Of a stretch of 64,000 nucleotides of DNA, positions 28,752-64,000 are shown in pieces. Source of the stretch: Candidatus Vogelbacteria bacterium RIFOXYD1_FULL_46_19 (GTDB lineage Bacteria; Patescibacteriota; Minisyncoccia; Phycocordibacterales; XYD1-FULL-46-19); contig MHTK01000002.1 of NCBI GenBank assembly GCA_001824825.1, positions 70,020 through 134,019 on the forward strand, read 5' to 3'. The notes under the pieces were generated by a model. That model searched no databases and was not told where the DNA came from. It saw nothing but the letters and a program-made list of their open reading frames with translations. The position numbers and the translations under genes are program-made. Each line of letters starts with the position of its first letter. Position 1 is the first letter of the stretch.

Positions 28752-28780
28752 AATTACCACACCTCCCCCAAAAGAAAAAG
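28752..28780 (+). repeat. 29-bp direct repeat, left copy (island boundary)
   Basis: AATTACCACACCTCCCCCAAAAGAAAAAG, identical to 32793-32821. Confidence 0.95.
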
Positions 28781-32792: not shown

Positions 32793-32821
32793 AATTACCA
32801 CACCTCCCCCAAAAGAAAAAG
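32793..32821 (+). repeat. 29-bp direct repeat, right copy
   Basis: Identical to 28752-28780; begins 2 nt after the TrmB stop. Confidence 0.95.
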
Positions 32822-34668: not shown

Positions 34669-34906
34669 ATTCCTATTTTACCTTTATTGGTTAGGCTTGT
34701 CAATCCCCCTCATATGGAATGATTCCGCTGACTGGTACCCCCAGGTTTCTCTGCGCTCAAAAGAGCAAAGCCATTCCATGTTTTTTTTGGGGGGGGTGTA
34801 CACCCCCCTGTAAATGTGCTCTAGGAGGGTCCTTAGAGTGGTAGTTTGTCTTGAAGTTGTAATATTGTGCGACTCTTTCTATACTGAATCAACAAAACTA
34901 CTAAAT

Positions 34907-35818
34907 ATGAAACTCATTGAACAACAGAAGCAAGAATTTCTCGACTACTTAGAGATTGAAAAGGGGCGGAGCTTGAAGACTCGCAGTAGTTATGATCGCT
35001 ATTTAAGCCTTTTTTTTAAGCAAACGAAAATCTCGTCCCCGACTGATATTGATGAGAATCTACTTAGAGAGTTTCGTTTGTGGTTGAATCGCCAGCCCGG
35101 TACGACCGGCACCTTGAAAAAAAATACCCAAAATTATTATTTAATTGCTCTTAGAACTTTTTTGAAGTACTTGGCGAGGCGGGGTGTTCCTTCCCTCTCG
35201 CCAGAGCGGATTGAACTGGCTAAAACGCCTGGTCGGGAGATTGATCTCTTAAATGAGGTGGAACTCGGCCGGCTACTTACTATGCCGGCCGACCAAGACG
35301 AAAAAAGTTTGAGAGATAAGGCTATTTTGGAGCTATTGTTTTCGACCGGCCTTCGGGTGTCCGAGTTAACCGGCTTAAACCGTGATTCCATTGACTTGTC
35401 TCGCGACGAGTTTAGTGTGCGAGGGAAGGGTGAAAAAGTGCGGCTGGTATTTTTGTCGCTCGACGCCAAAGAAGCTATTAAGACTTATTTAAAAAAACGA
35501 GTTGATATTGAAGAGGCTCTATTTGTGAGTTTAAAAAATAAAGTCGGTGATGCTCCGACTCGCCTCACTTCTCGTAGTGTGGAAAGAATAGTGAAGTTTT
35601 ACGCTACGAAGGCGGGTATTGGCAGTAAGGTTACCCCGCACACCATTAGGCATAGTTTTGCGACTGACCTCTTACAAAATGGGGCTGATATCCGCTCGGT
35701 GCAAGCTATGTTGGGCCACTCGAGCGTGGCCACTACCCAAATATATACTCACGTGACCGACAAGCACTTACGAGAGATTCATCAGAAATTTCACAATCGT
35801 AAAAATACTGGCTCTTAA
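34907..35818 (+). CDS. XerC/XerD-family tyrosine recombinase
   Basis: STGLRVSEL, VRGKGEKVR, TPHTIRHSFAT, LGHSSVATTQIY; ATG at 34907. Confidence 0.93.
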   Translation: MKLIEQQKQEFLDYLEIEKGRSLKTRSSYDRYLSLFFKQTKISSPTDIDENLLREFRLWLNRQPGTTGTLKKNTQNYYLIALRTFLKYLARRGVPSLSPERIELAKTPGREIDLLNEVELGRLLTMPADQDEKSLRDKAILELLFSTGLRVSELTGLNRDSIDLSRDEFSVRGKGEKVRLVFLSLDAKEAIKTYLKKRVDIEEALFVSLKNKVGDAPTRLTSRSVERIVKFYATKAGIGSKVTPHTIRHSFATDLLQNGADIRSVQAMLGHSSVATTQIYTHVTDKHLREIHQKFHNRKNTGS

Positions 35819-36139: not shown

Positions 36140-37612
36140 CTACTTGACACCGTGACGCTGACGAATTTTTTTTAGCTCCTTATTCTCGGTCTCACTCTTT
36201 TTTTCTTTACCTTGGGCGGCTAGTTTGGCTAATTCTTTATCCCCCAATTCATTAAGATCTTTAGCTCGGTTTAATAAGTATTCCTTGGTATTTTGGGTGG
36301 GCTCGTCGAGTACCTCTTCCAATAGAGCATGCAAAATTTGCCCGATTTGGGGACCAGGTTTCACGTGCAACTCGTTCATTAAGTCATTCCCGTCAATTTT
36401 TAGCATAGTGACCGAGGTGGGGCTACGCAAGGCCTCTTCAATCATCGATTCGTATTTTCTCAAGCGATAAGGGTGTTCCTTGGGCCGGCCCATACCGATT
36501 CGGTCGCTGGTGCGTAGCTTCATCAAGTCCCAGACATTGTTCTCCCCCACTTTGGCTATAATTCGGCGGACGGCTGACAAGGTAATTTGATCAACATCCA
36601 CAAAAAACATATGGTTTCTAACCAGTTTTTCCACCACCTCGGCAGTTTTAGACGGGTATTTTAGGTCGGCCATAATTTTCTGTACCAGTCGCGCTCCCAC
36701 TACCTCATGACCGTAAAAGGTCCAGTCATTTTTCTCTTTAATCCAGCGCCTGGTGGCTGGTTTACCAATGTCATGAAACAGAGCCGCTAGACGTAGGTGA
36801 AGGGGGAAGTCTCTCTCAGCGGCGTGTTGCAAAGCTCGGAGCGAGTGTTCCCAGACATCAAAGATATGATCCCCGTTTTGCTCAGTGCCGATTGCTGGTA
36901 CTAAGTCGGGTAAAACGTGCGGTAAAAGTTCAAGCTTGGAGATAAGCTGTAGACCCATCATTGGTCTTTTAGACATAATAATCTTGTTAAATTCTTCACG
37001 CAGTCTTTCTTTAGAAATCCGTCCGAGTAAGCCCGCCTCTGCCTCGATGGCTTGCTCAGTCACCGGGTCAATACTAAAGCCTAGCTCGGTAGCCAAGCGG
37101 ACAGCCCTAAGCAGGCGCAAGGCATCTTCGCGGAAGCGCTCGGTGGGTGAGCCGACGGTTTTGATGATCTTGTCCTTTATATCAGCTACTCCCCCAAACA
37201 GATCAATAAGTTGTCCTTTATCAAGATTATAGGCTAGGGCATTAATGGTGAAGTCGCGACGAGCTAAATCATCTTCTATCGATTCGGCAAAGTGGACTTG
37301 ATCTGGGTGGCGGTGGTCAGTGTACTCAGATTCAGTGCGGTATGGAGTAACCTCGACATTTTTTAAAGTTGGGTCATCGGTGTCCTCATTCACGATTGTG
37401 ACTGTGCCGAAGCGGTTTTCGTAAAAAGTCTTAGTAAATAAGGCCTCAATCTCAGAGGGAGTGGCTTTGGTAGTAATATCCCAGTCTTTAGGTTCGCGGT
37501 TCATTAGGCTGTCACGAACACAGCCTCCCACAATAAAAGCCTCAAAACCAGCATTTTCCAGGGTTTTGGTTATACGTGAAACTTCTTTTGGGACTGGTAA
37601 CGATATTTTCAT
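36140..37612 (-). CDS. cca: CCA tRNA nucleotidyltransferase with HD domain
   Basis: VGGCVRDSL..KDWDITT, RRDFTINA, FREDALRLLRAVR, LFHDIGK; ATG 37612 (the longer ORF runs through a tRNA). Confidence 0.9.
   Translation of the reverse strand: MKISLPVPKEVSRITKTLENAGFEAFIVGGCVRDSLMNREPKDWDITTKATPSEIEALFTKTFYENRFGTVTIVNEDTDDPTLKNVEVTPYRTESEYTDHRHPDQVHFAESIEDDLARRDFTINALAYNLDKGQLIDLFGGVADIKDKIIKTVGSPTERFREDALRLLRAVRLATELGFSIDPVTEQAIEAEAGLLGRISKERLREEFNKIIMSKRPMMGLQLISKLELLPHVLPDLVPAIGTEQNGDHIFDVWEHSLRALQHAAERDFPLHLRLAALFHDIGKPATRRWIKEKNDWTFYGHEVVGARLVQKIMADLKYPSKTAEVVEKLVRNHMFFVDVDQITLSAVRRIIAKVGENNVWDLMKLRTSDRIGMGRPKEHPYRLRKYESMIEEALRSPTSVTMLKIDGNDLMNELHVKPGPQIGQILHALLEEVLDEPTQNTKEYLLNRAKDLNELGDKELAKLAAQGKEKKSETENKELKKIRQRHGVK
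36357..36372. promoter_or_regulatory. parS-like site within cca
   Basis: GGTTTCACGTGCAACT versus consensus TGTTTCACGTGAAACA. Confidence 0.6.
37568..37583. promoter_or_regulatory. parS-like site within cca
   Basis: GGTTATACGTGAAACT. Confidence 0.5.
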
Positions 37613-37636
37613 AAAGAAACTAGTACTCCACTTGTG

Positions 37637-37708
37637 TGCTCTCGGAGGGACTCGAACCCCCAACGACGGTTCCGAAGACCGTTGTGATATCCATTTCACC
37701 ACGAGAGC
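37637..37708 (-). tRNA. tRNA-Arg (UCG)
   Basis: GCTCTCG/CGAGAGC acceptor stem; ACGGT-CTTCGGA-ACCGT anticodon arm; GGTTCGAGTCC T-arm; no encoded CCA. Confidence 0.95.
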
Positions 37709-37800
37709 CTAATGGCCATAGAATAGCGTGGAATTGAAAAAAAAGCGAATTTTTTAGGTTGTTTACTCTCGAGGAATAGTAAGTATTATATGTGCGGGTA

Positions 37801-37952
37801 GGGAGAATCGGTCAGGAATATCTTGCCCTCCGTCGAGGACAAGATTTCACGACCCTGGCTCACCTGTTTTTCTTGCTAGAAAAACATAGTTCCGCCTTTC
37901 GATTCTCCACGCAAGTAAAGCAGTTTACTTGCTCATTCCGTCACTAAAACCA
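37801..37952 (-). repeat. 152-bp structured module downstream of tRNA-Gly(GCC), copy A
   Basis: Exact reverse complement of 43392-43543, checked base by base. Confidence 0.95.
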
Positions 37953-37989
37953 CAAAAAACCAGGTTAAAACCTGGTTTTTTGTGGTTAG

Positions 37990-38060
37990 TGCGGGTAGGG
38001 AGAATCGAACTCCCGACTCGTCCTTGGCAAGGACGTGTTCTACCACTAAACCATACCCGC
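37990..38060 (-). tRNA. tRNA-Gly (GCC)
   Basis: GCGGGTA/TACCCGC acceptor stem; CGTCC-TTGCCAA-GGACG; GTTCGATTC T-loop. Confidence 0.95.
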
Positions 38061-38205
38061 TACTTTTTACTTCCCTAGTATAGCTAATTTATGGCGATAG
38101 TAAAGAAGTTTAAGCAAAATATGTTAACCTGTAAGTGTAAGGAAGCTTTAGCCCAGCAGTCTAATAATTATAAGGAAGGTATAAAATATATAATTCTTTT
38201 TATTT

Positions 38206-38742
38206 ATGAATAAATCCGTTGGTATAGTGGTAGCAGTGATTGTTTTACTCATATTGTTGGGTCTATGGGCGGCATTTAAAGAAAATGAGGAGCAAATCAT
38301 CCCAATAGACGACGATGACTCACCGGCTACCCAAGAGATAAGTCTGTTTTTTCTCAATGAAGACCGTTTTGCTGTGGGAACAGAGCCTTATGAGGATGGA
38401 GTCACTCGCTCTATTCCCGCCTCTAGCGAGGCTAAACAGGCGGTAATTAGCGCCCTTTACGCTGGACCAACAGCGGATGAAACCGACCAATCACTACGTA
38501 TGGTTTATAGCGAGTCGACGGGCGCCAGGGTAGACTTTGACGAAGCCACAGGCACTGCCTCGGTTTATTTAGAGAGTGGCTGTAATAGTGCTGGGGCGAC
38601 TTATACGGTGGCTAATTTAATAATCAGGAATCTAGAGCAGTTTTCAGACGTAAATCGGGTTATTATCTATGATCCGGAGGGTGAAACCTTAGGCTCTGAG
38701 ACAGATATTGGTAATTTGGTCCCCGCTTGTTTACAACCGTAG
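38206..38742 (+). CDS. Membrane-anchored GerMN-like domain protein
   Basis: N-terminal TM; AVISALYAGPT..E, IIRNLEQFSDVNRVII. Confidence 0.7.
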   Translation: MNKSVGIVVAVIVLLILLGLWAAFKENEEQIIPIDDDDSPATQEISLFFLNEDRFAVGTEPYEDGVTRSIPASSEAKQAVISALYAGPTADETDQSLRMVYSESTGARVDFDEATGTASVYLESGCNSAGATYTVANLIIRNLEQFSDVNRVIIYDPEGETLGSETDIGNLVPACLQP

Positions 38743-38830
38743 TTGGGCTGGCTTTTAGACTCAAGTGTCCCCTAGCTACCCCAACCGTGGCTTATAAATA
38801 TCGCTTAGTTGAGCGATATTTTGTTAAAAA

Positions 38831-38860
38831 AGTGGATAACCTTGGGGACAATGTGTATAA
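38831..38860 (-). promoter_or_regulatory. Three tandem DnaA-box-like 9-mers
   Basis: AGTGGATAA (38831), TGGGGACAA (38843), TGTGTATAA (38852), same orientation, in an AT-rich intergenic gap. Confidence 0.5.
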
Positions 38861-38986
38861 CGGACAGTCTTTTTAAAGTAGAGTTTGTCTTTTTACAATG
38901 AGAGAATATTGAAATTATGTTGATAGATAAGGCTTTTACTGGAAAATAAAGGAAAATGGTTAATTCTCAAGAGAAAATCCTAATTT

Positions 38987-39029
38987 GGTTACATATGTAA
39001 CACTTTCTATAAAAGTTATACATGAAACT
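38987..39029. promoter_or_regulatory. Two parS-like sites
   Basis: GGTTACATATGTAACA (38987-39002) and AGTTATACATGAAACT (39014-39029). Confidence 0.5.
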
Positions 39030-39059
39030 TTAACTTAAGGATGTGCTAAACTTTAGTTA

Positions 39060-39455
39060 ATGACGGCGAAAGCTCGATTGGGAGCCCTGGGGGAACAGGT
39101 AGCGGCTAAATATCTAAAGCAAGCCGGCTTTAAAGTGGTGGCACAAAATTACCGGAAACCCTGGGGAGAAATTGACCTAGTGGCTACTAAAGGAGGAAAT
39201 CTTCACTTTGTGGAAGTGAAAACAGTCACTAAAGCCGAGAATGTTTTACATGAAACAGGGGAGCAGGGTGATGATTATGAGCCGGCCGACAATATTCACC
39301 CCTGGAAGTTGAAGCGCCTGGCTCGGGCGATGGAAAGCTTTATGCTTGATCAGAACATTCCCGAAGAGGTGGACTATCAGTTGGATGCCATTTTGGTCTA
39401 CTTAAGCCCTAAGGAGCAGGTGCTTAAAATAGAGTATTTACCGGATATTTTTTAG
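39060..39455 (+). CDS. YraN-family (UPF0102) endonuclease-like protein
   Basis: LGALGEQVAAKYL, NYRKPWGEIDLVA, FVEVKT. Confidence 0.92.
   Translation: MTAKARLGALGEQVAAKYLKQAGFKVVAQNYRKPWGEIDLVATKGGNLHFVEVKTVTKAENVLHETGEQGDDYEPADNIHPWKLKRLARAMESFMLDQNIPEEVDYQLDAILVYLSPKEQVLKIEYLPDIF
39242..39257. promoter_or_regulatory. parS-like site within the YraN gene
   Basis: TGTTTTACATGAAACA, 2 mismatches to consensus. Confidence 0.6.
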
Positions 39456-39519
39456 TAAATTGGTCATAAAAGTGTTGGTTTTTTAAGAAGTTTCGTGTTA
39501 CGATGGGGGAGTTAAAAAA

Positions 39520-39707
39520 TGGGACGTGGTGTAACGGCTAACATTTTTGGTTTGCCTGTCCGCCAAAGCCAGAGCCGGGACGTGGTGTAACGGCTAACAT
39601 TCTCGGTTTGGGACCGAGCGATTCCGGGTTCGAATCCCGGCGTCCCGAAAGGGGGCGATGGCAGGTGGGGGACCGAGCGATTCCGAGTTCGAATCTCGGC
39701 GTCCCGA
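39520..39707 (+). other. Interrupted outer tRNA-Pro (5' half 39520-~39552, 3' half ~39668-39707) enclosing a palindromic element and a full tRNA-Pro
   Basis: Both halves are near-copies of the inner tRNA; the break is in the anticodon loop. Confidence 0.85.
39576..39648 (+). tRNA. tRNA-Pro (UGG), nested inner copy
   Basis: CGGGACG/CGTCCCG acceptor stem; CTCGG-TTTGGGA-CCGAG; CCGGG-TTCGAAT-CCCGG. Confidence 0.93.
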
Positions 39708-39711
39708 CAAA

Positions 39712-39755
39712 AAAACCACCAAAGACTCCGCTTAAGCGGGGTCTTTGGTGGTTTT
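39712..39755 (+). terminator. Terminator after tRNA-Pro locus
   Basis: AAAACCACCAAAGACTCCGC-TTAA-GCGGGGTCTTTGGTGGTTTT. Confidence 0.85.
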
Positions 39756-39925
39756 ATAAAACTAGTTCGATCAAATCCAACGAAGCTAAATACACTTTTC
39801 GTGTTCATAAAATAAGTACCCGCATTATTTATTGATTGACAAACTGGCTTTTATTGAGCAGGCTAATCAATAGTATTGTTGTGTTCTAGTGTTATTGTAA
39901 TATAGTCAACGAAGGAGGATTTCTG

Positions 39926-40342
39926 ATGAAACGTGAATTTAGCCTCTTGTTGCTAGTGGTGGTGGTTACGTTGGTGGTCGGCTGTCCCACGACAGTGCCG
40001 GGGGAGCGAGAATACTGGATCACGATCGAAAACCACACTGACATGGAGCTGACAGAGTTGTATATTAGCCCCTGCGGTGAAAGTTACTGGGGCGACAACT
40101 GGCTAGTAGGATCCATCGATCCCTGGACGTCCCACTACGAGGTTCTATTTGCCAACCAGTGTTGGGATATCCGGATTGTGTCGGAGTATGGAAACACAAT
40201 GACGACTCAGTTGTTTTTAGACTCCGACTACCTGATTCCTGTCTACCAAAGCAAGTCGGGTCAGTTGCTCGGAGAGAGCGAGGAAGCCTACTGGGAAGAT
40301 GGTGATTTTCTCTTAAAAGAATATCCACCACCCACCGAGTAA
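39926..40342 (+). CDS. Orphan lipoprotein-like secreted protein
   Basis: AAGGAGG SD; VVG-C lipobox-like; ITIENHT..ELYISP..WGDNWL..CWDIRIV. Confidence 0.8.
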   Translation: MKREFSLLLLVVVVTLVVGCPTTVPGEREYWITIENHTDMELTELYISPCGESYWGDNWLVGSIDPWTSHYEVLFANQCWDIRIVSEYGNTMTTQLFLDSDYLIPVYQSKSGQLLGESEEAYWEDGDFLLKEYPPPTE

Positions 40343-40531
40343 CCAGTGCTCGAATCGTTTGCCGTCCCTATCAACAGTAGGGGCGGCACTTCATTTCCGG
40401 AGTTTTTTGATTTCATAGTCAACTTAATATCTCGAGTAAAATTTTTAACTTTTTATCTTGACAGGTTTTTATTAATAATGGACAATGCCCAGCAGATTTA
40501 GTAGTGGTTACACAACTGGGAGGAGACTATA

Positions 40532-41284
40532 ATGCCAAAGCCCAAGTGGAGCGACTTCTGTTTTTTGTTCGTGTTTGGGGCGTCAATGGCTAGCTTGTGT
40601 TTGGTGGAGGCTTACTTAGACGGGTCAGCTTTAAAGCTCGATGTGATTCTCGGCGTCGTTATCGGAGTGCTTGTTACGGTGGTCTACACCGGATTCCGTT
40701 GGTTTGATTGGGACAGGCGAAACGAGGCCATGGTCGAGATCTTACGTTATCATCCGAATGATATCGAAGTCTTTCTCGGGCGGTGGGGTGTGCGGGTGAC
40801 GGCGCAAACCTTCGTCTGTGATATGGCGTTGTTTCGTCAGCATTCGGCCAAATATCTCGGCGCGGTGTTAGCTAAGCTCCTGGAGTATAAGCTTGACCGT
40901 AATGGCTGTCGGCCCGACTACCGCTATAGTGGTCAGTCAGCCTACACCGACTTGGTGCGGATGGCGGTGGTAGCTTACGATCAAGCTAGTCTGCCTAAAG
41001 GCTTTGTCACAGGTTTGAAAAATTACTCGGCTTGCGCGGAATATGAGTTGAGACGAGCGGTAGCGGCGGTGGATTACTATGACCGCCTCACAAGTTGGAC
41101 GACAGAATTGCACGAAATGGAGGAGCGGTTTGCGGGTGAACGCGAGGAGGCAGTGCAAGCTTCTTTAACACCGGTTGCCACTGTTCGGTTGTGGAACTGG
41201 ACCTGGTGCAAGTTGAGCCGGTTGCGACCCACGATTTGGGCGCCCACTTGGACCGCCCCGGCGGTCAAAGAGGCAAAACTCTAA
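40532..41284 (+). CDS. Orphan protein with two N-terminal TM helices
   Basis: GGGAGG SD, TTGACA upstream, terminator downstream. Confidence 0.75.
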   Translation: MPKPKWSDFCFLFVFGASMASLCLVEAYLDGSALKLDVILGVVIGVLVTVVYTGFRWFDWDRRNEAMVEILRYHPNDIEVFLGRWGVRVTAQTFVCDMALFRQHSAKYLGAVLAKLLEYKLDRNGCRPDYRYSGQSAYTDLVRMAVVAYDQASLPKGFVTGLKNYSACAEYELRRAVAAVDYYDRLTSWTTELHEMEERFAGEREEAVQASLTPVATVRLWNWTWCKLSRLRPTIWAPTWTAPAVKEAKL

Positions 41285-41411
41285 ACAGATATCCGGTGCC
41301 TCCTTTGAAATTTCTCAAGGGAAGCACCGGTTTTTTGATGCGGGTAATAATATTGACAAAACGCTTAAATTTGTTATAATATAAGAAGATTAAAAAAGGG
41401 GAGGAATGAAT

Positions 41412-41699
41412 ATGACTTGGGAGCGCGTTTTTAATTTTTTGGCGGCGGCAGTGACTTTTGTCTGGCGCGAGCTCTTGGGTCCCGTTGTCACCGGCTTGGT
41501 TCGGGGCGCTGGCGAGGGCTTACGAGCGGTGGCCCGGCGACTCGTCCCGCCAGTGGCCGTGGTCGGCCTCTTGGTCCTCTGGTACCGGACCAACCCGGAG
41601 AGTCTGGCCGACTCAATCGGTCTCGTGGTTTTCTTGGGCCTCTTGGCCTGGGTTGGTCGCGAGTGGTTCCGGGCGGCCTTCTCCGGGCGAAGGCGATGA
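41412..41699 (+). CDS. Small orphan membrane protein
   Basis: TTGACA-16-TATAAT, GGAGG 7 nt before ATG 41412 (41406 also possible), GAGCCGA stem terminator. Confidence 0.75.
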   Translation: MTWERVFNFLAAAVTFVWRELLGPVVTGLVRGAGEGLRAVARRLVPPVAVVGLLVLWYRTNPESLADSIGLVVFLGLLAWVGREWFRAAFSGRRR

Positions 41700-41924
41700 G
41701 GGTGTTTCGAGCCGAGGGAAATCTCCTTCGGCTCTTATTTTATACACTTTTATATACAGACAAGTTCTAGCTGATTGACTTTTTTACTGTTTCTGTTATA
41801 CTAGACAGCGTGCGTGTAAATATCTCAAAAAGTTTTCTCTCCAGGTGTATACAAACGCGAGGGAGCAGAGATCAGTATGAGGGGTCGTTACTTCGCATAT
41901 GTTAATAAGTTAAATTGTATACAC

Positions 41925-42191
41925 ATGGCTAAGAAGTTATACGTTGGTGGTTTGCCTTACTCTACCACTGACAGTGAACTCCAGGAGGCTTTTGCTCAGG
42001 CCGGTGCAGTTTCTTCGGCAACCATCATCATGGACCGAATGACTGGCCGTTCCAAGGGCTTTGGTTTCGTTGAGTTTGAAAACGATGGCGACGCTGACAA
42101 AGCGATCGACATGTGGAATGGCAAAGACTTTGGTGGACGGAATCTAACCGTCAACGAAGCTCGCCCGCTCGAAGAGCGACCTCGCCGCTAA
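41925..42191 (+). CDS. RRM (RNP-1) RNA-binding protein
   Basis: KKLYVGGL (RNP2), RSKGFGFVEF (RNP1), LTVNEARP; ATG 41925. Confidence 0.95.
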   Translation: MAKKLYVGGLPYSTTDSELQEAFAQAGAVSSATIIMDRMTGRSKGFGFVEFENDGDADKAIDMWNGKDFGGRNLTVNEARPLEERPRR

Positions 42192-42346
42192 CCGTAAGGT
42201 TACGACTGGTTTCTACCAAAAAAACCGCCCCAAGGGCGGTTTTTTGTTTTAGGTTGATTTAGATGTTTTTATAAAAATATTAAAGCCGAAGTTACAGTGG
42301 TGTGTGCAACTTCGGCTTTACGAACAGAAACCTCCCCCGCGATATG

Positions 42347-42655
42347 TCATTTTTCCGACCTTCCATGGTGTTGGTGTATCTCCCACGTGTGCGTGATGGC
42401 CGCCTTGGCCCCGCTCCAAATCATGGTGGCCACGATAATTTGAGGCGGATTTTTAGGATTAGTTGGAACAAGTATCCGAAGTTCCTCACTTTGCAGTTTG
42501 GGATACACATCGGAGTTAAATCTGAGAGTGATGCTGGCGCCGTCTGGATTGTGGGAAATCTCAGAGACAACACCTCTATGTCTCGGGGCCACAGTTCCTC
42601 TGGCCGCGTTTATTATTTTGTCATCTAGCGACAAGTTGCGCACTTCAAGCAACAC
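42347..42655 (-). CDS. Orphan protein (self-contained cassette)
   Basis: TTGACA-16-TAAAAT, AAAGGAGGTG before GTG 42655, AAAGCCGAAGTT stem downstream. Confidence 0.65.
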   Translation of the reverse strand: MLLEVRNLSLDDKIINAARGTVAPRHRGVVSEISHNPDGASITLRFNSDVYPKLQSEELRILVPTNPKNPPQIIVATMIWSGAKAAITHTWEIHQHHGRSEK

Positions 42656-42806
42656 TAGGATCACCTCCTTTCTGGTGCGGTGGAAATGGGTTTAGTTTCG
42701 ATCACAAAGAACAGATACCCTCATTTTAATAGGGTCGGAATTTATGTCAATGTCAACAATTCCCGTAAGGATGGCTCTCTTCTTTTGGTCGTGATAAAAT
42801 TTATCA

Positions 42807-43220
42807 ATGCCAATTATATTTTTGCTGGTAATTTTAGTGGTCGCGGTGGTGGGTGGGGTGACCAGTGGGTATATAAAGTATCACCGCCGACACGGAAAAA
42901 AATTAGAATGCGCTATTACTACCGATTGTGAGCAGTTATTTTCCAGTTCTTACGAGGCTTGGCGGGGGATAGATAATGAAAAGCTTGGTTTATGGTTTTT
43001 TGGCTTAGTGATTGCTTTTGCGGTCCTTGGGGCGGTGGTAGGGGTTTATTGGTGGCTTAAGGTAGGTTTGCTCTTGGTGACCATGGCTGGAGCCGGGTAT
43101 GGAATTTATTTAATCCACGCCCAAATTAGAGTGATTAAGCACTGGTGCACTTGGTGTTTGGTGCCGACCGTTTCGGCGGTAATCATTCTCTTGGCGGTGT
43201 TGGGGTTACTGGCAGCTTAA
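42807..43220 (+). CDS. Vitamin K epoxide reductase (VKOR)-family protein
   Basis: C-x5-C..S.Y..GI.N..LG, TM helices, WCTWCL redox motif. Confidence 0.88.
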   Translation: MPIIFLLVILVVAVVGGVTSGYIKYHRRHGKKLECAITTDCEQLFSSSYEAWRGIDNEKLGLWFFGLVIAFAVLGAVVGVYWWLKVGLLLVTMAGAGYGIYLIHAQIRVIKHWCTWCLVPTVSAVIILLAVLGLLAA

Positions 43221-43282
43221 ATTTTCAGATTGAAACGGCCGAGCAATTTTGCTAGTATGCCTGGTGTTACTCTGTAACATAT

Positions 43283-43353
43283 GCGGGATTAGTTAAATGG
43301 TATAATATCAGTTTTCCAAACTGAGGTTGGGAGTTCGATTCTCCCATCCCGCA
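43283..43353 (+). tRNA. tRNA-Gly (UCC)
   Basis: GCGGGAT/ATCCCGC acceptor stem; TCAGT-TTTCCAA-ACTGA; GTTCGATTC. Confidence 0.95.
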
Positions 43354-43391
43354 CAAACCACAAAAGACCGGATTTTAACCTGGTCTTTTTT

Positions 43392-43543
43392 TGGTTTTAG
43401 TGACGGAATGAGCAAGTAAACTGCTTTACTTGCGTGGAGAATCGAAAGGCGGAACTATGTTTTTCTAGCAAGAAAAACAGGTGAGCCAGGGTCGTGAAAT
43501 CTTGTCCTCGACGGAGGGCAAGATATTCCTGACCGATTCTCCC
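43392..43543 (+). repeat. 152-bp structured module downstream of tRNA-Gly(UCC), copy B
   Basis: Identical, inverted, to 37801-37952. Confidence 0.95.
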
Positions 43544-43584
43544 ATCCCGCACAAAAATTTACCCACCAGACGTGATCTGGTGGG

Positions 43585-44088
43585 TTAGTCGGCAAAACTG
43601 GAAACGATGTCGTAGTGGCAATCAAGGACTATGCCTTGATTGGACCCAGGTTGATACTTGCACCACCCACGTATTTTTTGGTCAGACAAGATGAGTGGTA
43701 GAAAGGTGTAGTCGCCAGCCATCATCTCCACTTGGCGGGGGTTGGCGATCAAGTCAGAAATGTTAAACCACTGACCTTTGACCATTTCCTCACTGTCCTG
43801 GGGCTCACCCTGGTACTTGGTGGTGGTGAAAATATGGACCAAGAACTCTGAATCCGGCCCGTTGTGGAAGGTGATTTCCGCCACTTTAATCAGGTCGGAG
43901 GCTACGAGCTTGACCTCGGTTTCTTCCCGGGTTTCGCGCACGGCCGTTTCTGGTGGGGTTTCGCCCACTTCACATTTACCACCCGGCCCGGTGTACTTAC
44001 CGATACCGATTTTTCCGGTTTTACGGCCCATAAATACTTGGCCATTCCTGTTGGATATAAAAACCAGTGCGCCCACTTTTTTACTCAT
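43585..44088 (-). CDS. NUDIX hydrolase (MutT/MTH1-like)
   Basis: GGKCEVGETPPETAVRETREET Nudix box; GEPQDSEEM. Confidence 0.92.
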   Translation of the reverse strand: MSKKVGALVFISNRNGQVFMGRKTGKIGIGKYTGPGGKCEVGETPPETAVRETREETEVKLVASDLIKVAEITFHNGPDSEFLVHIFTTTKYQGEPQDSEEMVKGQWFNISDLIANPRQVEMMAGDYTFLPLILSDQKIRGWCKYQPGSNQGIVLDCHYDIVSSFAD

Positions 44089-44205
44089 AGTATTTCTCCG
44101 GTTAGGGTTTCTGACTCAACTCTACCATCATTATTATTTAGCACAAGTCTACTCTTTTGAAAAAGTTTGCTACAATCGGAGGCGTAATAACTAACTTAAT
44201 TTACC

Positions 44206-45039
44206 ATGCTGACATACTGTTATGCTAAGGGAAAAATTGTCCGTTTAAGCCAAGCGACTGTTCCGGCCAATGATCTGGCGATTTTGCGCGGTTACGCCGT
44301 GTTTGATTTTACCCGCATTTATAACGGCCGGCCGTTTCACCTTAAAGATCATTGGGCTCGTTTCAATCGCTCGGCTCGGGAGCTGGATCTTAAGGTACCG
44401 GTTAAGCTAACAGAAGTTGAACAGGCAATTAGTGATCTCTTAAAAAAGAACAAGGTTAAAGATGCTTCCGTCCGCCTGGTGTTGACCGGTGGGGCTAGTG
44501 TGGACTCTATAGCTAAAGGCCCGGCCGAATTTTTTATCTTAATGGATTATCATTATAACTTACCCCCGGCAGTTTTTACGGAGGGAGCTCGGTTGATAAC
44601 CTATGAGTTACAACGGGTACTACCGACGGCTAAAAATACCAATTATGCAGCGGCGGTAAAACTACAGAAGGATCTAAAAAAGGCTAAAGCGGTCGAGGTG
44701 CTCTATGTTAACAATGGTGCCATTTTAGAGTGTTCGACCAGTAATTTTTTTATCGTTAAAAACAAAGTGATAATAACGCCGAAAGATAAAATTTTGACCG
44801 GGGTGACTCGTCAGATCGTGCTTAGACTGGCACGGAAAAAATATAAAATAGAGGAGCGGTCGCTTAAGTTTGTCGAGCTTAAAACCGCCGACGAGGCTTT
44901 CTTAACCGCGAGCAATAAATACGTGACCCCGGTAGTGAAAGTGGATGAGATGGTGATCGGATCTGGTCGGGTTGGCGAGGTGACTAAAGAGTTACTCGCG
45001 ACCTATCACGAAGAAATAAAGAAAGAGTGTTATAGCTAA
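44206..45039 (+). CDS. Class IV PLP-dependent aminotransferase
   Basis: LRGYAVFD, HWARF, AKNTNY, ECSTSNFF, ILTGVTR, DEAFLTAS. Confidence 0.93.
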   Translation: MLTYCYAKGKIVRLSQATVPANDLAILRGYAVFDFTRIYNGRPFHLKDHWARFNRSARELDLKVPVKLTEVEQAISDLLKKNKVKDASVRLVLTGGASVDSIAKGPAEFFILMDYHYNLPPAVFTEGARLITYELQRVLPTAKNTNYAAAVKLQKDLKKAKAVEVLYVNNGAILECSTSNFFIVKNKVIITPKDKILTGVTRQIVLRLARKKYKIEERSLKFVELKTADEAFLTASNKYVTPVVKVDEMVIGSGRVGEVTKELLATYHEEIKKECYS

Positions 45040-63020: not shown

Positions 63021-64000
63021 ATCGATTTTAAAATATTTGGGTCTCACTTTAATACTCGTAGTGGGGGTATTGTCTTTGGGGTGGCACGGGGATGAGTACT
63101 TAAGTTTTACCGTTTACGCCGGTAACTCGCTGGCGCGGACGGCCAAAAGTTTGCTGGCCCAAGTGTCCTCTAGTGTTTCTTCGCCTATTGTTTCCAGTGT
63201 AGATTTAATGGGATCGGGAGTGGTGGGCAACAGCTGGCAAGTGGGGACCACCAACACTGTAACTTGGTCTTACGGCAATTTTAGTCCCACAGTAAAAACC
63301 GTATCCTTAAGCTTGTGTAACCCGATTACCTCAGGATCGTTTGAGTATTGCATTTTGATGAGTCATGGGCCTGATCAGCCGCAAAATAAAGTTGTATCAG
63401 GCGATGGTCAGATAGCGGGCACCGCCACCTCTCTCCAACCTCTCGGCCAAGCGGTAGTATCAAAACATATCAATCCTTACTACCACCTCTCAGTGGAAGA
63501 AAAGAAAGCTAAAGGGGCGCTCCTGGCCGCAGCCTTTAGTGGATATCGTACTAGAATTAAAGTTTGTCCGACTGATGATTTAGGCCAAACACCGGGTGGG
63601 GCGAGATGTGCTTACAGCCAAATCTATTACGTTAGTGACCCAGCTAATCCGCCACCATCTAGTGAACCATCAGTGACCACTTTCCCGCCAACGGTGTTCA
63701 CGGTTAATATTAGCGGTAGTGGTATGGTTTCTAATACTCGCTGGCAAGTGGGCACCTCTAATACCTTAAGTTGGACTTATAAAGATTTTAGTAGCACTGC
63801 TAAAACTGTATCTCTAAGCCTATGTAATCCAGCCCTCTCCGGGACTAATGAATACTGTATTTTGATGAGCCGGGGACCCAATCAACCACAAAATAAAGTT
63901 GTATCAGGCGATGGTCAGGTAGCGGGCACCGCCACCTCCCTCCAGCCCCTCGGCCAAGCAGTGGTATCAAATTACATCAACCCTTACTATTATCTGTCGA
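63007..64000 (+). CDS. Large secreted repeat protein, 3'-truncated by window edge
   Basis: ATG 63007 overlaps the upstream gene; hand-translated portions are open; MKINKSILKYLGLTLILVVG; 507-bp tandem domain repeat. Absent from the ORF track. Confidence 0.8.
   Translation, partial: MKINKSILKYLGLTLILVVGVLSLGWHGDEYLSFTVYAGNSLARTAKSLLAQVSSSVSSPIVSSVDLMGSGVVGNSWQVGTTNTVTWSYGNFSPTVKTVSLSLCNPITSGSFEYCILMSHGPDQPQNKVVSGDGQIAGTATSLQPLGQAVVSKHINPYYHLSVEEKKAKGALLAAAFSGYRTRIKVCPTDDLGQTPGGARCAYSQIYYVSDPANPPPSSEPSVTTFPPTVFTVNISGSGMVSNTRWQVGTSNTLSWTYKDFSSTAKTVSLSLCNPALSGTNEYCILMSRGPNQPQNKVVSGDGQVAGTATSLQPLGQAVVSNYINPYYYLS

Follow-up and report, generated by a model that had tools for sequence, protein, structure and literature searches.

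The two tRNA-Gly genes in a 64,000-nucleotide stretch of the genome of Candidatus Vogelbacteria bacterium RIFOXYD1_FULL_46_19 (contig MHTK01000002.1, positions 70,020 to 134,019; this whole stretch is called the window) are each followed by a non-coding unit that holds an inverted copy of the transfer RNA (tRNA) end, a structured core and a direct copy of the same end. The units belong to a real family in the candidate phyla radiation (CPR) that has the layout of the tRNA-linked repeats (TLRs) of Escherichia coli, a known but unexplained kind of sequence, and that is distinct from the RtT family of such repeats. We give roughly an even chance to the view that the units are non-autonomous, gene-less insertion elements that act as folded single-stranded DNA and insert at the T-loop of tRNA genes. 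Their anatomy, fold, covariation, distribution, patchiness and stacking are demonstrated below.

Both loci have the same order of parts: tRNA, terminator-like hairpin (HP1), inverted acceptor part, second hairpin (HP2), inverted T-arm part, two-hairpin core and direct copy. On the plus strand, tRNA-Gly(UCC) was located by ARAGORN at 43283-43354, without an encoded CCA, and its last 19 bp (43336-43354) form the first repeat copy. It is followed by HP1 (43355-43399), an imperfect inverted copy of the acceptor 3' strand of the AT type (43400-43410), HP2 (43411-43433), an inverted copy of the T-stem 3' strand and T-loop corresponding to tRNA positions 54-64 (43436-43446), and a conserved core, called type C, at 43447-43534. 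The core forms a three-way junction with helices P2 (43448-43487) and P3 (43490-43534), and the direct copy of the tRNA end, which starts within the T-loop, occupies 43534-43552. Beyond it lies a hairpin (43561-43585), terminator-like on the minus strand, that may be the original trailer of the gene. The minus-strand locus consists of tRNA-Gly(GCC) at 37989-38060 (ARAGORN; last 19 bp 37989-38007), HP1 at 37945-37988, the inverted acceptor copy, HP2 and inverted T-arm copy together at 37898-37944, a core with the same sequence as the UCC core at 37810-37897, and the direct copy at 37792-37810.

The 19-bp end of the TA type thus occurs twice at GCC with a period of 197, and the AT type twice at UCC (43336-43354 and 43534-43552) with a period of 198. 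The longest exact stretch common to both loci is 152 nt, 37952-37801 on the minus strand and 43392-43543 on the plus strand. End-to-end alignment of the two units gives the TA/AT difference twice and five substitutions and one indel in HP1; otherwise they are the same. No open reading frame (ORF) of at least 60 codons is present within either unit, and among the Rfam 15 families only four tRNAs score above the gathering threshold in 37000-44500, so that the units match none. An initial annotation, made from the letters of the window, had already described the identical modules, the two periods and the isoacceptor-specific ends, and had called the module a non-coding structured mini-element lacking an enzyme of its own. 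The analysis supports this; the inverted tRNA-end copy inside the module and the genome-wide family had been overlooked.

The Gly feature is real and represents two true copies. Misassembly, which the initial annotation had named as a possible undoing of its claim, was examined by aligning the contigs of four sequencing runs to the region. Run X1, perhaps the source sample, has the shared part collapsed into a single contig; its depth is 20.6, compared with about 11-12 in the flanking sequence, and each of the four junctions of the shared part is represented. This run alone cannot phase a collapsed repeat, which is the one point in favour of an artefact. In run X7, from another study, a single 336-nt contig covers the whole GCC unit with five differences, one of them listed inside the module; no single piece covering the whole UCC unit is among the 32 of 642 aligned pieces listed. 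Double depth, the four junctions, the contig across the GCC unit and the recurrence of the same anatomy in many genomes leave an assembly artefact with a negligible probability. The X7 contig over the GCC unit has single depth, and another X7 contig aligns only from 43582, preceded by 249 other letters; that strain may have a different UCC trailer. The two identical units stand in opposite orientation on either side of a 5.4-kb segment (37953-43391), which homologous recombination could flip; the flipped joint was not seen among the contigs listed from the four runs.

The identity of the Gly pair is best read as conversion between two units that were already homologous. Because HP1 differs while the next 152 bp are identical, simple whole-unit copying does not apply, and the different terminators indicate that the two were separate units before homogenisation of the 152 bp. 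The inverted acceptor part is of the AT type at both loci, including GCC, where it mismatches the TA acceptor of its own gene, whereas GCC-adapted units elsewhere are of the TA type (L027, L214). The transfer therefore probably went from UCC to GCC, as read by eye. The identical tract extends up to the TA/AT of the direct copy, the point at which homology ceases. Homogenisation by conversion had been one of two possibilities in the initial annotation, and the differing HP1 and the AT-type inverted copy at both loci support it. Judging by their sequences, it recurs in relatives: the two Gly loci of genome G014 match exactly over 87 nt, extending from the T-stem across both HP1 and the inverted copy, and the pair at L214 consists of homologous units, 76% identical over 200 nt, with both arms adapted. 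Taken alone, the exact identity of the two copies is ordinary conversion.

The units extend far beyond the Gly genes. In the genome of this bacterium (708 kb, eight contigs) an inverted copy lies behind 25 of 38 scored tRNA genes, one gene having been skipped for Ns, and in 15 of these 25 a direct copy is present at 11 or more of 13 bases. The gene for transfer-messenger RNA (tmRNA) carries units as well, and nearly all core matches in the genome adjoin tRNA or tmRNA genes. About four core types can be distinguished by eye. A pattern for the Gly-type core gave at least 122 loci in species genomes, mostly labelled Patescibacteria, of which 80 were fetched; a tRNA was called within 330 nt upstream in 60 of these. 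Type-C cores sit behind tRNAs of 18 amino acids, with arms that match tRNA positions 54-73. A covariance model, R1, built from the window copy and 57 of 71 usable loci (14 were left out by eye as redundant or long) matches 49 of 61 related genomes, up to 15 times in a single one; of 150 further genomes sampled from the phylum as a whole, it matches only 7. The homolog search proposed in the initial annotation thus uncovered a wide family, and the module is not specific to Gly. The exact P3 hairpin had no match in a metagenome scan whose set possibly excludes records near this genome. No description of the CPR family was found in the literature searched; older papers (Rudd 1999, Williams 2002) could bear on its novelty.

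Presence of the units is patchy, since orthologous Gly loci have a unit in some genomes and lack it in many, and units stack, with different cores and terminators. In genome G021 the proximal unit agrees with the present tRNA-Gly(GCC) and the distal remnant bears a different end. Some modules of the Vogelbacteria genome (G000) lie away from tRNA genes, at C6:177132, C4:26105, C4:54786 and C8:32744 (L176, L177); the first of these has Asn-type arms, and small ORFs separate it from tRNA-Asn, which lies 3.7 kb upstream. In the same genome, tRNA-Gln(UUG) (C8:21151-21222) and tRNA-Ile(GAU) (C6:313636-313711) are followed by longer copies of the 3' half with no core between.

Such distant modules, with genes between them and the tRNA, are what one would expect if the units were remnants of ordinary integrase islands, with a double-stranded attP and a fixed core, each of which had lost everything but its ends by deletion. 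Ordinary att sites, to our knowledge, do not include the target sequence in inverted form. The duplication from T-loop to tRNA end does follow an att pattern that is described in the available part of 10.1101/2020.11.02.365908. The island explanation does not agree with the uniform size and intact structure of the units, with near-identical cores that have different arms, or with the lack of an adjoining integrase: 50 of the 61 related genomes have exactly one match to PF00589, and one has none. Nor did the homologs reveal a fixed att core, the outcome that the initial annotation had named as damaging to its proposal, since one core type serves 18 amino acids with tailored arms. We consider island remnants quite improbable.

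The module is strongly structured, with a fold z-score of -8.6 as RNA on the sense strand and -8.7 as DNA, and none of 200 shuffles folds as well. Because of the inverted tRNA-end copy inside it, the unit folds into a closed branched rod. When the two units are cut at the T-loop and closed, circular DNA folding pairs 150 of 198 and 154 of 197 nucleotides, about three quarters, with energies of -45.7 and -53.5 kcal/mol, where rough shuffles give about -15. The inverted arms thereby form a duplex site, as in a folded single-stranded att site. Positions fixed by the search pattern are invariant by construction and covariation was judged at free pairs. At one pattern-free position in P2, 74 of 77 cores have a Watson-Crick pair and four types of pair occur, and pairing at position 59 covaries in 67 of 77 cores against a shuffle mean of 31. 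Over the whole core structure 92.5% of cells are paired, a figure inflated by related sequences and reached in none of 500 shuffles. Three further positions of the type-C core co-vary, with A/T/C in 14 and G/C-or-A/G in 61 of the 77 cores (L052-L131); they represent a tertiary contact or a subfamily mark.

The loops and stems of the cores point to DNA. Among 125 distinct cores of all types, which as relatives are not independent observations, GNA triloops number 37 of 104 against four of the reverse-complement type; shuffled sequences give 14 of 229 and the genome background 2 of 71. The motif GCGNAGC occurs 63 times and its reverse type twice, and GNRA accounts for 2 of 102 tetraloops. According to the accessible part of PMC13037366, GCGNAGC mini-hairpins are extraordinarily stable as DNA, the related RNA hairpin is much weaker, and motifs of this type occur at origins of single-stranded DNA phages. 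Within the variable stems of the cores G-T pairs amount to 4 of 861; the same method counts 21 of 600 in HP1, and the figure for tRNA stems is 37 of 708. A terminator control downstream of ORFs gave 28 hairpins, too few for use. The structure of the family is under selection and looks DNA-like rather than RNA-like.

A different account of the same structure is a functional trailer RNA, like RtT or RrA/B/F. Transcription would read through HP1, the inverted and direct copies would pair into a mimic of the tRNA top half that is processed like a tRNA, and conversion would spread it. The sense-strand fold is as expected for this, HP2 stands at the place of the D and anticodon arms, and the core has strand-specific G-T positions and a G/A internal loop. 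The rRNA-linked repeats of E. coli are moreover transcribed and processed and bind Hfq and CsrA, as stated in the part of PMC8144298 at hand. Against an RNA stand the near absence of GNRA and UUCG loops, the depletion of G-T in variable stems and the many orthologous loci without units. The mismatches in the inverted-arm stem, 12 G-T and 13 A-C, are those of neutral decay, and the inverted copy follows the tRNA and not its supposed partner, the direct copy, in the comparison given below. On balance a trailer RNA is fairly unlikely.

In 69 type-C units the inverted copy agrees with the tRNA at all 10 sites where tRNA and direct copy differ. The same comparison for positions 60-64 in a larger set gives 27 of 28, although detection favours this outcome. 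At T-stem sites without Watson-Crick pairing, the sequence of the inverted copy is complementary to the 3' strand in 6 of 10 cases and repeats that of the 5' strand in 2 of 10. The direct copy is perfect (17 of 17 bases) in 28 of the 69 units, and in 25 of these 28 no more than 4 nt separate the end of the duplication from position 73. This pattern fits a unit whose stem consists of the tRNA end and its inverted copy, which inserts at the T-loop and displaces the old chromosomal end. The initial annotation had argued that a fixed att end would mismatch one of the two acceptor stems, and had proposed an element that copies the 3' end of its target. As argued, the paradox is unsupported: under a T-loop crossover the downstream copy is the displaced chromosomal end and is isoacceptor-specific without any copying, and with the Gly pair explained as converted homologous units nothing paradoxical is left. 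Tailoring to the target does exist, in the inverted copy, which at Gly(GCC) is of the UCC (AT) type. The real remaining puzzle is that the same core occurs with different arms. In genome G041 cores that are 95% identical stand behind Gln and Val, each with its own arms; only this pair is used here from a small within- and between-genome comparison that included duplicate loci.

The sharp end of the duplication at the tRNA 3' end could also result from retro-insertion, in which an RNA is reverse transcribed at the target and leaves a 17-19 bp duplication, and a reverse transcriptase (RT) gene is present in the genome. However, CCA follows 33 of 126 direct copies and 42 of 170 module-less tRNA genes, which is no excess, 14 of 22 module-rich genomes have no RT, and the loops are of the DNA type. 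This route is very improbable.

Another reading is that the units arose by replication accidents without a dedicated enzyme. Fold-back and template switching at the palindromes of terminator and T-loop could generate inverted triplications, and ectopic conversion could spread favoured cores. The inverted arm indeed prolongs the HP1 stem and complements the 3' strand, no enzyme co-occurs with the units, and a half unit is known: tRNA-Gly(UCC) of G014 (L038) is followed by HP1 and an inverted copy up to the T-loop complement, with no core or direct copy within the 235 nt viewed, and may be an intermediate. Yet what forms the loop at the second junction is a foreign core that is conserved and shows compensatory pairing, the junctions are fixed at the T-loop for 18 tRNA types, and stacked units have different cores and terminators. 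Accidents without an enzyme are unlikely.

The proposed insertion element acting as folded single-stranded DNA would work in three steps. The unit would comprise the tRNA end (positions 57-73), HP1, the inverted tRNA end with HP2, and the core; cut at the T-loop it would close into a rod whose stem resembles the double-stranded T-arm of the target gene. In the first step a recombinase supplied in trans, most likely of the tyrosine type, would swap one strand at the T-loop and replication would complete the insertion, by analogy with the folded attP of CTX phage or attC of integrons. The copy carried by the unit would then restore the tRNA, and the old chromosomal end, moved downstream, would become the direct copy, from which its isoacceptor specificity would follow. 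The second step, the least secure, concerns the arms, which may be resident and tailored to each tRNA, with fold-back copying around HP1 creating or maintaining the match, while loci would swap their cores. In the third step, homologous units at both Gly loci would have undergone conversion from UCC to GCC, giving the 152-bp identity with a tract that ends where homology ends.

The candidate for the enzyme is an XerC/D-like tyrosine recombinase encoded at 34814-35818 on the plus strand, the only PF00589 match of the genome. A role for this or another enzyme is suggested by the analogy with CTX attP(+). The genome further encodes one Y1-type protein and one RT, and has no match to the serine recombinase family PF07508. 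No integrase is encoded within the element, the sole PF00589 match being the syntenic Xer-like gene. By coordinates, this single gene lies within a few kb of an Arg/Gly tRNA cluster here and in many relatives. Larger versions with an integrase, HUH transposase or RT, which the initial annotation had considered worth seeking, were not found. In the viral scans a control pattern for the tRNA-Gly end found 11 loci, so the scan works; none of these has the inverted or direct copy as an exact motif or a convincing R1 match.

Several observations weigh against a folded single-stranded DNA element. An Xer-like gene is present in 60 of 61 genomes, which makes it uninformative on an enzyme link, and module counts in the 61 genomes, taken from type-C cores only and from related, hence non-independent, genomes, correlate with neither RT nor Y1 transposase (Spearman -0.06 each). 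Among the 22 module-rich genomes, besides those without RT, nine lack PF01797 (Y1) and eight lack both. Six core and HP2 patterns gave no match to a free or larger form of the module in the viral scans, the phage and plasmid record collections contain no module match, and no circles were seen in the contigs of the four runs. The Gly module itself has tetraloops and no GNA triloops, so that the DNA signal exists only at the level of the family, where related cores were counted; the conserved G-T positions and the G/A internal loop of the core also suit RNA, and the E. coli counterparts, as far as PMC8144298 was available, are transcribed and processed. At two sites, in Val(GAC) and Gln, the inverted copy follows the direct copy. 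Finally, retargeting between tRNA families is not explained by a simple integrating circle.

The window contains other repeats. Upstream of the tRNA-Pro(UGG) gene (39576-39648) stands a 34-nt copy of its 5' part (39521-39554, 94%); downstream, its 3' part recurs as a 44-nt copy (39664-39707, 91%), followed by a hairpin with 22-bp arms (39712-39755); this duplication is of a different kind from the Gly units. An exact 29-nt direct repeat occurs 4 kb apart (28752-28780 and 32793-32821), and a 259-nt repeat with 76% identity at 63233-63491 and 63740-63998. The gene for the CCA-adding enzyme (36140-37702) is directly behind tRNA-Arg(UCG); its listed GTG start falls inside this tRNA, and the true start is therefore probably the ATG near 37611.

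Known systems share parts of this design. Integron attC sites are recombined as folded single strands. In the part of PMC4246890 that was accessible, CTX attP(+) is described likewise as a site folded from inverted target-like arms about 90-150 nt apart, with one strand exchange that is resolved by replication and an enzyme supplied in trans. The Gly units resemble attC and the integrative mobile elements exploiting Xer (IMEX) in having two inverted target-like arms that fold into a duplex site. They differ in that the target is a T-loop and not dif or attI, that the arms are tailored to dozens of targets, and that no phage, cassette gene or integron integrase is attached. A dif target with XerC/XerD arms was not found, the arms matching tRNA 54-73, and no separate search for Xer sites was made. 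With elements that target tRNA or tmRNA genes, for which a duplication from T-loop to gene end is known (10.1101/2020.11.02.365908, as far as available), the units share this duplication, the restored tRNA and the apparent position of the newest unit beside the tRNA; unlike them they are about 200 bp long, lack an integrase, have an inverted copy of the target and use the same core at many tRNA types.

Repetitive extragenic palindromes (REP) and bacterial interspersed mosaic elements (BIME), mobilised by REP-associated tyrosine transposases (RAYT), and miniature inverted-repeat transposable elements (MITEs) are also small, palindromic and non-autonomous DNA, with single-strand hairpins and tandem amplification. 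In contrast to REP/BIME, the units are strictly linked to tRNA or tmRNA genes, have long target-derived arms and are not associated with Y1 proteins (the correlation given above). As for retro-elements, neither an association with RT nor an excess of CCA after the direct copies was found.

The closest likeness is to the TLRs of E. coli. These have been known since 1978 and are defined by an 18-19 bp copy of the 3' end of the upstream gene; PMC8144298, in the part available, gives them no known function, and the word 'inverted' is absent from its main text. RtT (rttR, RF00391), the lysT-lysQ repeats and RrA/B/F are, like the Gly units, non-coding and structured, and lie behind tRNA genes with an 18-19 bp end copy. 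The positional definition applies to the Gly units, which lie directly behind a tRNA gene and have a 19-bp end copy at both loci. In DNA fetched from strain K-12, the tyrT and lys repeats contain an inverted piece of the tRNA end and a direct copy that starts in the T-loop, and the layout at lysQ is tRNA, terminator, inverted T-loop, core and direct copy. The lysQ repeat (L178, 1353-1545) duplicates the tRNA end together with the terminator, and an exact inverted T-loop/T-stem piece lies inside it. GNA triloops number 16 of 35 in E. coli TLRs, against one of the reverse type, the copies being non-independent. The Gly units thus work like a TLR, and qualify as one by position, without being members of the RtT family: RF00391 has no match at E<=1 in the Vogelbacteria genome, with a positive E. 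coli control, and R1 finds nothing at the tyrT locus of K-12 and only a 10-bit fragment at the lys locus. The CPR units differ further in that most tRNA genes and the tmRNA gene carry them, with several core types, a longer inverted arm that holds HP2 and a presence that varies widely between genomes. In the accessible part of 10.1101/2024.07.17.603846, coverage of rttR is raised under stress, and raised coverage of RNA genes is read as probable RNA/DNA hybrids and not as circles; excision in E. coli therefore receives no support from it.

The large and patchy TLR-like family of the CPR supplies covariation and filled and empty alleles, favours folded DNA over RNA, and so makes the origin of TLRs testable. 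It is possible, although we regard it as doubtful, that the CPR units and the E. coli TLRs together make up a class of minimal single-stranded DNA elements that has so far gone unrecognised. Such elements would construct their attachment site out of a copied end of the target gene; a single core recognised by a protein could in this way be redirected to tRNA or tmRNA genes of any kind, with insertion carried out by an enzyme of the host. If cores are indeed retargetable, they would give site-specific insertion at tRNA genes a new route, and would supply some of the small islands that accumulate behind tRNAs in these reduced genomes.

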